Shown piece after piece: positions 1,057 through 4,848 of a stretch of DNA of 9,806 bases. This DNA comes from Escherichia coli. GTDB taxonomy: Bacteria; Pseudomonadota; Gammaproteobacteria; Enterobacterales; Enterobacteriaceae. The position numbers and the translations under genes are program-made. Location of the stretch: the NCBI RefSeq assembly GCF_003334355.1, contig NZ_QOWP01000058.1. One strand, 5' to 3'. The notes beneath the pieces were generated by a model, which was given only the letters and a program-made list of their open reading frames with translations, ran no database searches and was not told the origin of the DNA. The number at the start of each line of letters is the position of its first letter. The first letter of the stretch is position 1.

Positions 1057-4000
1057 TTCAAACAGGGCTTCAATATCGTTAATTAGCTCGCTGGCGGTGA
1101 TGGCATCGAGTACGGAGAACTGCGCTTCCTGTGTTGAATTACTCCCCCAGCCATAGCTTTCTGCTTTGCCTTCCCATAGCCACAGCTTGCTTAAGAGCTG
1201 CTCAGCGCTGAGTTCGGCTGGCGACATACCTACAGCAAAGCCTTCATCGATTTCCATGATTAACGACCAGCGACCGAGAGGTTTGATCATCCAGCCGATC
1301 CAGCCTCCATCCTGCGGGGTGCCCTTTATCCAGCCTTTATTCGCCAGCCCCATTACCCGACCGCTCGGGCATTTTCTGCCTGCCCAGCGGGTCAGTTCGC
1401 TGGCGTTGCGCTCGGCTTCTGTCAGGGCGTAACTGTTACGGTCAAGCTGACGGAACGGCGGTAACAGTTCGTAGTCGGCAAAAAGCTGACCAAAGGCGGC
1501 AGCATCCGTCGGTGATATTTCCAGAACGTGAGGAATACCAATAGAGATATCGCCTTCCGGCATGGTGAAAAGATCATCGTCAGCGGTGCTGTAACTGTTA
1601 TCTTCCGCCACGCGAAAGCACGCCAGCAGCTGGTTTTCGGCGCTATAAACACCCCAAATCAGACGGCGGGTTAAGTGGCGAACCAACGGATGCTCAACCA
1701 GGAACAGCTGAAAGTTTTCCGGTGACCAGCGGCGGCGCAGGCACATGGCGGATTCCAGCCTTGCTACCTGCTGGGCGGCGACGGTACGCGCATCTTTTTT
1801 CAGCAATTTGTAGCGGTTTACCGCCTCATCAGCCCGCGATTCATCATCGCTTTTATTGGGTTTAGGTAAGTCTTTCAGGCGGCTGCCGGAAACATCACGC
1901 ACAAACGGTTTTAAGGTTTCATCAAAGCTGACGGTGAACTGCCGTGGGCCAAAATCCAGCAGCAACGAACCGTTATCATCCAGACTGAGATCCGGTGCTA
2001 ACCGATCTTCAAGCTCCGCCACTGTCAGTTCGCGACTTTCGGCAATGTCGGCAATTTTTTCTTTCGCCCGCTCCTGTAATGCTTTGAATTTCAGTTTCTG
2101 GGCAATGCCGTTAAGCTGCATCAGGGCGATATCACTACCGATAGCAGCGAGAATATCCAACCCAACGGTGGCGCGTTTATGCTGGGATTCGCCAGGCCAG
2201 GCGCGGATTAATGGCGTCAGTTTGCGGGCGGTGTCATCGTTACCGAGAACGCCTAACGCAGTGAACGCCCAACTCTCTTTCGACGGCGCGCCAGCGGTCT
2301 GCCAGGCGGTAAACAGATCCCAGGCAAATCCCGCCAGTGAGTCGGCGGAACAGACGTCTTTCACCTGCAATAATCCCGGATACAGAGCCTCTTCCTGAGG
2401 GAAGCGGAGCATTTCACCGAGGTGGAGGAGGGCGCTATCTGGCAGTGATTGGGCATTTGCTTTTAATACCGGGCGCGTCCAGAGCGATGGCTGATAAAAG
2501 GCCGGAAGAGTGGGGATTTTTGTCGGGTGATTATCTAAGGGATCGAGCGCAAGCAGAGCGTTCACCGCATCGGTTACTTCCGGCTGGTTATAACGTCGGG
2601 CGATTTCTTGCAGTAATGGCTGATGACCGTTTTCGGTAAGCATACGCAAGGCAGCGCGGGCGTTATCCTGTGCTTCACCGGCTTTGCCGAGCGCCGCAGG
2701 CAGCAGGCCGGTAAGGGCATGTTCCGGGTATTTCAACAGCCAGCTACGGGCGTTTTCGCGTAGCGTTTTCAGTTTGTTGAAGGCACGGGCGACGGCAGGA
2801 GCCAGCTCACTCGCTGCGAAGTAATTCGTGATGGGCAAGGCTTCTTGTGGATAGCGTGCAAGTGAGTTTACTAACCCAGGTAACCCTTTGAGTCCAAAAT
2901 GTAACATGGCGTATTCGGTATCGGTATGTGGAGATAGGGTAAGGGCATTCCATGCTTTTACTGCTTTCTCCAGCGGCAATGTTGTCAAAATCCCCAACTG
3001 CCAATAATGCCCGGTAGGTGAATGAAACACCTTAAATTCACTTAGTAAGGTTGAATAATCTTCATTTAGCCATGCCTCAACTACCGCTTCGGGAGCTTTA
3101 ATATATGTACCAGCGATCCGTCGTTGAAAACCCATCCTTGCCAACAGGTTGGTAGTACTTTCTTCATGGCTAACCGTGATGTGTTTTGAATACCAGATAT
3201 ATTTCGCCAAAAGTTGATTACTGATTTCTTCTGTCAGATAACAGATTGGCTCAATGCCTAATGGCGCTAAATCCAGCACCGGAATCGGCGATTTTTTCTT
3301 TTTCGAAAGCCTGGGAGGGGAGACTACTACGGCTGGCAGTAGATCGGCGCTGGCATGGTTTGAGGGCTGTGTCAGTTGTTCCTGGCATGATTTCAGTACG
3401 GCAACTGCGGGTGTCGAGAGCCAGGGAATGACCTGTTCTGCCAGTGCTGGTTGTGAGATAAGCATTGTCATTAGCATAATGCGCCAACTGTTCTCTTCTT
3501 TTTGCCCAAGAAGTTCCGTCAGTGCCGCCATTGCTGCATGTGGGAACGCAGCAATGGCTTTCGTCATCCGATCGTGACAGCGTTTAGTTTGCCCGGCTAC
3601 ACGTATAAGCAGTGTCAATGCGAACGGATGATTGATATGACGCAACACATCGGCGCAGTAGTCACTTGCGGCATAGGGAGCAAATCGGGGCAGGGCTGCA
3701 ACACCTTGCTCCTGTAATACGGTGGCTGACCATATCGCACCACAATAGTAATCATCAAAAATGGCATATGGTTCGTGATATTTTTCTAATGAGGCAAGAA
3801 TGTGCTCATCAGTCGCCACTATTTTTAACCACTCAAGCGAGGGTAATTTTTTTTGCCCCAGTAGACGCTGGGCAATTTCATGTGCAATTTCTGGTTTTTC
3901 GGGTAATAACAAAGCAATTAATGGTTGCCGCCATTCTGGAATATGTGGAATTGCGGCAATAAGTTTTTGTGCACATTTTTGCCAGAGAGACTCTTCCGTC

Positions 4001-4848
4001 AGTGATAAATGTTTACGTAGGCGTAATTCAAATCTGGAATATTGCTCCAAGTAGCTAGGTGCAATGCCAGACGGCAGAATAATAATGACATTATTCGCAT
4101 AATCCCATTCAATATCAATCTGTTGAAGGTGTATTATTACATCAGTAGCATATTCCAGACCGCCTTCCTGGACGATCTGATCCATAACATCCTCACGCAC
4201 TTTATATCTTGTGCATTTCATTTCAAGTGCCGTGAGTACAGCCATTACTGGTGATGGTAACTGTGTTGTTTTCAGGCCGTCGATCTGACTGATCGCCTGG
4301 GCGACGGTGTTTTGCCATTCTAAAGAACAGGCGCTGAAGTCAAATGTGGCTGTTTTATTATCCCGTTGCGACACACTACAGGCTAAGCGACGTAATTGGG
4401 GCAATTTGTCTGCTTGCTGAACAGGAACTCCGGGAAAGCGGCGATGACTTAACGTGGTGTGTACAACTTCGGGCGGAAAAACGACAGCAATATCTTTCGC
4501 CAGCCACGGTAAAACAGCATCTGTATTTTTGTCAGGCGCACGGGTTTCTGCTACGAAAGAGGGTTGTTCCTGAATAATGGTGGATAAGTCCGCTACCTTG
4601 AGAGAGCCCGTTACCGTTTGGGAAGGTTGCAAAGAATTATCCTTCGCTTGCTCCACATACCCCTTCTTCACCTTCTCCGCAATCAGCTTAAGCTCCGCTT
4701 TTGCCGCTGCCGCAGCATCTGAAAAACTTTTTATCTGGCTTTGCCCTTTGGTGCCAACTTTTCCCCAACTGATATGCAACTCGTTTCCCTGTTGCTCAAC
4801 TGCCCTGAATTTATGTGATTTTTCGTCCTGATAGATAAAGTGTCTCAT
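1054..4848 (-). CDS. molR: Large WGR-domain protein with helical repeat region and C-terminal DUF4132-type region (putative molybdate metabolism regulator MolR), 1264 aa, intact
   Basis: Uninterrupted 1265-codon ORF. N-terminus MRHFIYQDEKSHKFRAVEQQGNELHISWGKVGTKGQ...KGYV has the pattern of a WGR domain. Length equals the 1264 aa I recall for E. coli MolR, and it lies immediately downstream of metG as in E. coli. AGGGA Shine-Dalgarno about 6 nt upstream of the ATG at 4848-4846. Confidence 0.85.
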   Translation of the reverse strand: MRHFIYQDEKSHKFRAVEQQGNELHISWGKVGTKGQSQIKSFSDAAAAAKAELKLIAEKVKKGYVEQAKDNSLQPSQTVTGSLKVADLSTIIQEQPSFVAETRAPDKNTDAVLPWLAKDIAVVFPPEVVHTTLSHRRFPGVPVQQADKLPQLRRLACSVSQRDNKTATFDFSACSLEWQNTVAQAISQIDGLKTTQLPSPVMAVLTALEMKCTRYKVREDVMDQIVQEGGLEYATDVIIHLQQIDIEWDYANNVIIILPSGIAPSYLEQYSRFELRLRKHLSLTEESLWQKCAQKLIAAIPHIPEWRQPLIALLLPEKPEIAHEIAQRLLGQKKLPSLEWLKIVATDEHILASLEKYHEPYAIFDDYYCGAIWSATVLQEQGVAALPRFAPYAASDYCADVLRHINHPFALTLLIRVAGQTKRCHDRMTKAIAAFPHAAMAALTELLGQKEENSWRIMLMTMLISQPALAEQVIPWLSTPAVAVLKSCQEQLTQPSNHASADLLPAVVVSPPRLSKKKKSPIPVLDLAPLGIEPICYLTEEISNQLLAKYIWYSKHITVSHEESTTNLLARMGFQRRIAGTYIKAPEAVVEAWLNEDYSTLLSEFKVFHSPTGHYWQLGILTTLPLEKAVKAWNALTLSPHTDTEYAMLHFGLKGLPGLVNSLARYPQEALPITNYFAASELAPAVARAFNKLKTLRENARSWLLKYPEHALTGLLPAALGKAGEAQDNARAALRMLTENGHQPLLQEIARRYNQPEVTDAVNALLALDPLDNHPTKIPTLPAFYQPSLWTRPVLKANAQSLPDSALLHLGEMLRFPQEEALYPGLLQVKDVCSADSLAGFAWDLFTAWQTAGAPSKESWAFTALGVLGNDDTARKLTPLIRAWPGESQHKRATVGLDILAAIGSDIALMQLNGIAQKLKFKALQERAKEKIADIAESRELTVAELEDRLAPDLSLDDNGSLLLDFGPRQFTVSFDETLKPFVRDVSGSRLKDLPKPNKSDDESRADEAVNRYKLLKKDARTVAAQQVARLESAMCLRRRWSPENFQLFLVEHPLVRHLTRRLIWGVYSAENQLLACFRVAEDNSYSTADDDLFTMPEGDISIGIPHVLEISPTDAAAFGQLFADYELLPPFRQLDRNSYALTEAERNASELTRWAGRKCPSGRVMGLANKGWIKGTPQDGGWIGWMIKPLGRWSLIMEIDEGFAVGMSPAELSAEQLLSKLWLWEGKAESYGWGSNSTQEAQFSVLDAITASELINDIEALFE

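Follow-up and report, generated by a model that had tools for sequence, protein, structure and literature searches.

Low-GC patches in Escherichia coli molR probably mark two cassettes of a patchwork gene

Introduction

The molR gene of Escherichia coli raises a simple question: why does it carry patches of low guanine-plus-cytosine (GC) content when its 3′ half is GC-rich? We address this question in a 9806-base stretch of E. coli DNA, hereafter called the window, which covers the metG/yeh region in reverse orientation relative to strain K-12 and includes an intact molR. An earlier note on this DNA (the original prediction) had proposed a mosaic origin or a different evolutionary history for the segment encoding roughly residues 190-380, for instance through recombination with a lower-GC donor after gene duplication. 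Our findings support, with good confidence, a model wherein molR is a patchwork gene whose low-GC patches are the composition signature of two of its pieces, a signature that is specific to particular lineages. This confidence extends to the mosaic structure and to the lineage-specific composition, whereas we are much less certain about the cause of the low GC and about the function of the gene.

Results and Discussion

Composition of the molR gene

The low-GC patches are readily reproduced. The hand counts on 60-nucleotide lines that drew attention to them proved exact (17 of 60 nucleotides are G or C at 4081-4140, 23 of 60 at 3961-4020, and 33 of 60, or 55%, at 2221-2280), and the line at 3001-3060 carries 22 of 60. 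The nine lines of 3721-4260 carry 25, 24, 25, 25, 23, 27, 17, 30 and 23, for a mean of 40.6% with one line at 50%. Likewise, a 200-nucleotide profile falls to 0.40-0.44 at 2901-3300 and 3701-4300, versus 0.55-0.59 at 2101-2800. The mapping of the larger patch to residues 190-380 was also correct, as positions 3720-4260 encode residues 197-377. The value for the comparison line in the paralog yehI needed adjustment, since 421-480 carries 30 of 60 (50%) rather than about 48%, and the contrast with molR holds. However, this contrast reflects the flat composition of yehI, which shows no break over its full length, rather than gene conversion between molR and yehI.

Most of the GC deficit is synonymous. 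The GC content of third codon positions (GC3) is 0.25-0.37 over residues 211-390, versus 0.5-0.7 in the 3′ half, and the homologous part of yehI has a GC3 of about 0.5 even though its protein is up to 68% identical. The stretch most conserved in protein, at 68% identity to YehI, has the lowest GC3 in molR (0.24). This speaks against an alternative in which molR was inherited vertically with no mosaicism, and its low GC stems from local amino acid composition or from relaxed constraint in a fast-evolving, linker-like region.

Significance was assessed by permuting codons within molR. The poorest 180-codon interval (residues 193-372) has a GC of 0.398 and a GC3 of 0.311, which is exceptional relative to the whole gene (p = 0.0002). 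The sole robust change point lies at codons 669-677 (approximately 2818-2842), where GC3 changes from 0.42 upstream to 0.58 downstream (p ~ 0.003) and overall GC from 0.46 to 0.55.

Two cassettes in a conserved backbone

The body of molR is of the B type, named for one of the tandem paralogs (copies A and B) that are described below. Sliding identity to B-type alleles together with maximum-likelihood breakpoints defines two cassettes, which we call N and M, and the conserved segments around them (Table 1). In the 3′ module, the proportion of differing sites (p-distance) is at most 0.06 within E. coli, where the metG baseline is 3-5%, and it reaches 0.08 to Escherichia whittamii and 0.37 to copy A. 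The connector between the cassettes is 0.87-0.98 identical to every E. coli B-type allele, with p-distances of 0.09-0.17 between the window allele and the others. Within the cassettes, p-distances between classes are 0.40-0.48, which is deeper than the separation of A from B in the 3′ module. Cassette N, which spans a disordered linker at residues 69-110 along with the protein's first helical and beta part, splits into three deep classes at p-distances of 0.41-0.48, and the classes of M are approximately 38-48% identical to each other in protein. Synonymous sites are saturated between classes (proportion of synonymous differences 0.70-0.79), and protein identities are 0.39-0.55. Nonsynonymous relative to synonymous divergence (dN/dS) within classes amounts to 0.22-0.38 for N and 0.05-0.14 for the 3′ module. 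These low values indicate purifying selection, and thus the gene is constrained and not decaying.

Both low-GC patches fall within the cassettes, and the composition change point is located about 15-50 nucleotides from the 3′ edge of M. The low-GC segments and the 3′ half therefore have different histories, as predicted (cassettes diverge by 40-48%, the 3′ module by no more than 6%, and the connector by 9-17%), but the units that carry these histories are larger than the GC patches. Residues 190-380 do not form a mosaic unit of their own: the actual units are codons ~59-435, codons ~520-686 and a 5′ head from copy A, and 3720-4260 is only the AT-richest core of N. An apparent breakpoint at gene nucleotide 1136 in matches from sequence type 131 (ST131) derives partly from an IS26/CTX-M-15 insertion in one strain and was not used as a recombination boundary.

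Table 1. Features of the window, with the parts of molR listed from the 5′ end of the gene
Feature	Coordinates	Strand	Basis or remarks
molR (yehH)	1054..4848	minus	Intact coding sequence, 1264 amino acids
5′ head, gene nucleotides 1-141, from copy A	4708..4848	minus	Diagnostic sites
WGR domain, residues 6-69	4642..4833	minus	Conserved in all A and B copies, p-distance 0.03-0.17; 5′ recombination flank
Cassette N, codons ~59-435, class N1	3544..4674	minus	Maximum-likelihood breakpoints 4674/4653 and 3544/3553/3610
AT-richest core of N1, residues 193-372	3733..4272	minus	Scan statistic, line counts
Conserved connector, codons ~436-519	3292..3543	minus	Flank common to both cassettes
Cassette M, codons ~520-686, class M1	2791..3291	minus	Breakpoints 3267-2806 versus M2, 3291-2791 versus M3; GC 0.41-0.43
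Conserved 3′ module, codons ~687-1264	1057..2790	minus	GC 0.55, GC3 0.58; DUF4132 at 1330-1887
IS10 end (presumed)	1-77		
yehI, 5′ third, lacking a WGR domain	78..1044	minus	Cut by IS10; used for comparison in the original prediction
metG	4989-7031	minus	
apbC	7124-8263		
yehE, then yehD			yehD cut by IS1 end
IS1 left end	9632-9806		Reads GGTGATGCTGCCAACTTACTGAT...; interrupts the fimbrial gene yehD at its 3′ end

Distribution of the cassette classes

The classes are common to several Escherichia species (E. coli, E. whittamii and Escherichia sp. MOD1). Class N1 is present in the window, in strain BH100 and in the B copies of E. coli 50579417 and E. whittamii, N2 in the B copy of FDAARGOS_1266 and in Escherichia sp. 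MOD1, and N3 in EC581 and the B copy of VCSW7. Class M1 is carried by the window and the B copy of 50579417, M2 by BH100 and the B copy of E. whittamii, and M3 by the remaining alleles. The original prediction had suggested separate phylogenies for the parts of the gene, to be taken as refuting it if they agreed, and the neighbor-joining trees and distance matrices for the separate modules are indeed strongly incongruent, with the 3′ module following the species tree.

Among 5426 complete E. coli genomes, N1 was found in approximately 4084, N2 in 745 and N3 in 156, whereas M1, M2 and M3 were found in 3398, 626 and 887, respectively. The distribution of M1 is bimodal, with at least 95% identity in 3396 of the 5426 genomes and no detectable match in 2028 even by sensitive blastn. 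A further N class is present in an O157-like strain.

The alternative without mosaicism could draw on the lowered GC of first codon positions in the M patch (0.43-0.52), on the higher dN/dS of N relative to the 3′ module, and on the fact that copy A and yehI, too, vary more in their 5′ halves than in their 3′ halves. However, it does not anticipate discrete, sharp-edged classes within flanks that diverge by 6-17%, incongruent trees with classes common to several species, or synonymous saturation between classes within a single species in which metG differs by 3-5%. We therefore consider purely vertical inheritance to be highly improbable.

Other observations temper our enthusiasm for the patchwork model. 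The breakpoints and trees are based on 13-20 sequences. Only four class haplotypes are seen (N1M1, N1M2, N2M3 and N3M3), and the population counts fit N1 = M1 + M2 and N2 + N3 = M3, a pattern that shows replacement of cassettes but falls short of showing free reassortment of N and M. The dip at 3733-4272 is marginal when judged against the 5′ 669 codons alone (p = 0.02-0.04). Moreover, metG also has a GC3 step, from 0.66 to 0.49 at codon 538 (permutation p = 0.013), and thus GC heterogeneity alone is weak evidence of mosaicism. The similar size of the metG step and the marginal standing of the first patch within the 5′ half might even suggest that GC has merely fluctuated by chance along a long gene. 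We give this explanation almost no credence, because permutations over the whole molR gene yield p values from 0.0002 to 0.003, and because chance would not be expected to align composition with recombination boundaries or to correlate it with divergence (see below).

Why the cassettes are AT-rich

Within the patchwork model, the cause of the low GC must be considered separately. GC3 declines as alleles become more divergent from one another (Spearman rho -0.68 to -0.74, p ~ 1e-5 to 1e-6, 31 intervals). The composition break at codon ~670-682 is present in alleles with N1 or N3 and weak in those with N2; it is missing from yehI and from the B copy of GCA_033836465.1, an enterobacterium that we take to belong to another genus judging by its metG divergence. 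Because the break tracks cassette class, low GC belongs to particular cassette lineages and is not required by the protein.

The donor proposed in the original prediction would have supplied a single low-GC segment after duplication, which has since drifted slowly toward E. coli composition. The mainly synonymous nature of the deficit agrees with this view, and the synonymous divergence of only ~0.3 since the split from E. whittamii would leave such amelioration incomplete. Furthermore, the B copy of the other genus is closest in protein to N3 (0.55) and M3 (0.59) and further from N1 (0.39) and M1 (0.44), so the latter look non-orthologous; indeed, this copy is as far from N1 as yehI is. However, no donor came to light. 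A genome scan with the whole MolR protein yielded matches in three Escherichia species and, beyond these, only in two tiny contaminant contigs, a word-indexed protein search returned only E. coli and E. fergusonii clusters, and a search of 1.84 billion proteins with residues 61-700 matched 154 representatives, none of which is closer than Escherichia's own classes. Fragments resembling N1 and M1 (P0224, P0225 and P0236) were discarded, as they come from indel-ridden assemblies, two of which are clearly E. coli.

The direction of substitution is also informative. Among four N1 alleles, polarized singletons in the low-GC core comprise 19 AT-to-GC and 22 GC-to-AT changes, although this polarization is by parsimony on four sequences and the singletons include polymorphisms, a category that in bacteria is generally AT-skewed. 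The implied equilibrium GC3 is 0.33 (0.24-0.42) for N1 and 0.55 (0.46-0.63) for the 3′ module (bootstrap P = 0.0002), and amelioration at the rates of the 3′ module is rejected (P = 5e-5 for the module and 6e-4 for the core). On these figures, N1 is at a low equilibrium composition of its own. In E. whittamii, the GC3 of the N1 core is 0.20-0.38, which is as low as or lower than that of the window. The presence of N1 in this species at equal or lower GC3, together with the lack of net AT-to-GC flux, argues against a recent, ameliorating import, and we regard a single import from a lower-GC donor as unlikely.

Another possibility is that selection acts on the AT-rich patches as DNA elements, such as nucleation sites for H-NS that silence the locus or internal promoters. 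Intragenic DNA that is AT-rich is a common target of H-NS in E. coli, the low composition has held steady over time, and two of four promoter-like matches lie on the sense strand in the first patch (4118-4090 and 4226-4199). However, a promoter and terminator scan found no enrichment of promoter-like sites (4 versus 4.0 +/- 2.0 expected), N2 lacks the AT-rich patch yet occurs in 745 genomes, and the position of the patch tracks cassette class instead of a fixed site. We find a selected DNA element to be very improbable on this evidence. Codon selection linked to expression cannot explain the difference in GC3 either, since N1 and the 3′ module reside in one gene.

Recombination-linked GC enrichment has been described in bacteria (PMC4450053), and this process could operate differently on the parts of molR. 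Homologous recombination through the conserved flanks might have placed or kept the cassettes in a common backbone while the flanks stay homogenized. Cassettes that are unable to pair with other classes would be less exposed to GC-favoring forces (biased gene conversion or selection), and their composition would then rest near an AT-biased mutational equilibrium. We infer that such weakened GC-favoring forces on the cassettes might be the cause of the low GC. Nevertheless, low GC is not universal to cassettes, as N2 has a GC3 of about 0.5 in the core region, and N1, the class found most often, ranks with the AT-richest, N3 being similarly AT-rich overall. That N1 is commonest yet AT-rich and N2 is not would be unpredicted by a simple model in which more recombination brings more GC.

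An A::B fusion within a tandem array

Three tandem DUF4132 paralogs (A, B and yehI) follow metG in E. whittamii, in two further Escherichia species and in several E. coli strains. Copy A starts with MRHFI and ends with ESLFD, whereas copy B starts with MKTYIY and ends with EALFE. In GCA_033836465.1, the order is apbC-metG-A-B-yehI-yehL-yehM in a locus with a GC of 58%, metG is 94% identical in protein, and A, B and yehI are each orthologous to their E. coli counterparts. The shared order and orthology in another genus imply that the triplication is old and vertically inherited. These comparisons indicate that the ancestral Escherichia locus consisted of metG, copy A, copy B and yehI.

The window molR carries the A state at gene nucleotides 7, 8, 11, 15, 57, 70, 93, 102 and 141 and the B state at nucleotides 168, 171 and 186. 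Identity of the molR head is 0.89-0.96 to A copies, versus 0.82-0.91 to B copies. Thus, as judged from the diagnostic sites, the window molR is an A::B fusion with a crossover at nucleotides 142-167 (4681-4707), which arose by unequal crossing-over inside the WGR-coding head, as in K-12, with deletion of one gene-length unit. BH100 switches from A to B between nucleotides 141 and 168, as in the window. In EC581, the junction lies between nucleotides 15 and 57, and this different position implies that fusion arose at least twice. The body of copy A is still present in approximately 1644 of the 5426 complete E. coli genomes.

The other members of the array show compositional and allelic irregularities of their own. 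Copy A of GCA_033836465.1 (10001-13738) has a GC3 of ~0.51 over its first 930 codons, versus 0.69 at its end and 0.7-0.76 in its neighbors. This anomaly is far larger than that of the window, and it affects the paralog that has been lost from the window. The 5′ half of yehI is patchily divergent, reaching 0.20 within E. coli (codons ~301-350) and 0.34 versus E. whittamii (codons ~151-200), and copy A diverges by 0.22-0.28 within E. coli over codons ~551-700. Therefore, mosaic evolution is a family trait, albeit milder in these genes than in copy B. We rejected yehI and copy A as conversion sources of the molR patch, given that N1 shares only 0.39 protein identity with YehI and 0.27 with A.

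The MolR protein and its possible function

MolR carries a Pfam WGR domain (PF05406) at residues 6-69 (E = 1.2e-15), which matches the solved WGR structure 2ra8 by sequence and fold, and a DUF4132 domain (PF13569) at residues 988-1173 (E = 1.6e-51). RefSeq accordingly names it 'WGR and DUF4132 domain-containing protein', and YehI lacks the WGR domain. The AlphaFold model (predicted local distance difference test score, pLDDT, 85; predicted template modeling score, pTM, 0.68) includes the WGR domain, the disordered linker, a long and mostly helical region with HEAT-like helical-repeat matches, and a C-terminal alpha/beta domain. No DNA-binding regulator domain was found in MolR, for which Pfam yields only WGR and DUF4132 and the model gives a helical repeat. 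The legacy name 'MolR family transcriptional regulator / molybdate metabolism regulator' is thus without support from the sequence.

Repeat scaffolds of this kind usually bind partners. The cassettes probably form a recognition surface of the HEAT-like repeat, in a protein that would work with the products of neighboring genes, YehL (MoxR AAA+), YehM, YehP (vWA) and YehQ (SWIM), and balancing or diversifying selection might keep this surface diverse. Extending this proposal, we suggest as a tentative and rather doubtful possibility that MolR A/B and YehI are hypervariable recognition subunits of a conflict- or immune-type system around YehL, YehM, YehP and YehQ. Cassettes N and M would serve as target-recognition surfaces, balancing selection would keep ancient classes across Escherichia, and duplication and fusion would tune the repertoire. 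As a point against the functional reading of the cassettes, no family in PADLOC-DB v2 matches MolR, YehI, YehK, YehL, YehM, YehP or YehQ. NCBIfam yielded nothing informative, and a functional study was not found in the literature on DUF4132, the yeh genes or MoxR/vWA/WGR/SWIM.

The locus is relevant beyond this proposal. A composition anomaly that looks minor marks a strongly polymorphic E. coli locus, for which K-12 holds only a pseudogene with a misleading 'molybdate regulator' name. Synonymous-saturated, cross-species classes in near-identical flanks are typical of recognition or conflict genes, and the polymorphism gives a testable lead for the function of the yeh cluster (molR and yehI to yehQ). 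The gene also offers a natural case for studying why hypervariable cassettes stay AT-rich, as segments of one gene with equal expression have equilibrium GC3 values of 0.33 and 0.55. Pipelines for typing and pangenome analysis will also split or mis-cluster molR.

Genomic context

The window molR is 100% identical to molR of E. coli KL53 and PSS-12 and 98.3% identical to the K-12 copy. The K-12 MG1655 gene is a pseudogene: a stop follows codon 274, and codon 949 carries a +1 frameshift. Genes of this family are often inactivated in other strains as well: EC581 has an internal stop, the O157-like strain has a copy A with a stop and a copy B that is split and shortened, and an ST131 isolate carries an IS26/CTX-M-15 transposon inside copy B, at the same metG/DUF4132 site as reported in PMC9334617. 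In the three-copy strain E. coli 50579417 (10331-14023), yehI and yehM are annotated as truncated pseudogenes and abut each other, which suggests a deletion from yehI to yehM.

Matches to molR were obtained in 5419 of 5426 E. coli genomes. The gene does not resemble a genomic island, being near-universal in E. coli, retaining metG...yehL synteny in another genus, and having a 3′ composition like that of the core genome. The GC3 step of metG lies near the start of its C-terminal tRNA-binding domain. On the minus strand, a strong hairpin followed by a run of T nucleotides is located at 4956-4979, just past metG and about 110 nucleotides upstream of the molR start codon. This hairpin is probably the metG terminator, in which case molR would need its own promoter in the 140-nucleotide spacer.

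Both ends of the window are strain-specific insertion sequence (IS) ends. The first 77 nucleotides, whose reverse complement begins CTGATGAATCCCCTAATGATTTTGGTAAAAATCATTAAG..., we take to be the terminal 77 nucleotides of IS10. This element is inserted in yehI after approximately codon 322, and the open reading frame at 40-1044 thus encodes a truncated YehI plus 12 IS-encoded terminal residues. The best-matching genomes lack this insertion, and their match begins at 78. In PSS-12, the closest genome, IS1 is located further on, in the usher gene, such that about 2.9 kilobases (yehC and part of the usher gene) are missing in the window. The IS10 and IS1 ends account for the many matches to the window in every genome. 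The intergenic region between yehE and yehD at 8801-9100 is very AT-rich, with a GC of 0.23.

Comparison with known systems

Four known systems share parts of the molR pattern. Like molR, the hsdS genes of type I restriction-modification systems are generally known to carry two hypervariable, AT-richer cassettes between conserved recombination flanks, with discrete classes in differing combinations. However, MolR does not resemble HsdS and lacks methylase or nuclease partners, and its N and M classes are seen in only four haplotypes. The Rhs genes of E. coli likewise encode large proteins, have recombining paralogs, and show a composition step at the border between a GC-rich conserved core and AT-rich variable tips. 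The variable part of Rhs is a C-terminal toxin tip with an accompanying immunity gene, whereas the variable parts of molR are N-terminal and central, its step is milder (GC 0.46 versus 0.55), and there is no evident toxin or immunity pair.

The flagellin gene fliC resembles molR in having deep allele classes in one species, conserved ends, and classes common to related species; its hypervariable center defines the H-antigen classes. FliC, though, is a surface antigen on which host and phage exert pressure, whereas MolR is modeled as a soluble helical-repeat fold that lacks an N-terminal helix. Bacterial immune sensors of the STAND/NLR-like type, with their variable TPR/HEAT sensor domains, resemble MolR in that variation lies in a helical-repeat region. 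The molR genes invite this comparison also as tandem paralogs, often pseudogenized or hit by IS elements, beside the ATPase gene yehL (AAA_5). Unlike these sensors, MolR has no NTPase domain, and its cluster has no PADLOC match. The molR pattern therefore resembles those of hsdS, Rhs and fliC although the gene belongs to none of these families, and we rate it as a new example of a known phenomenon, namely allelic-cassette polymorphism.

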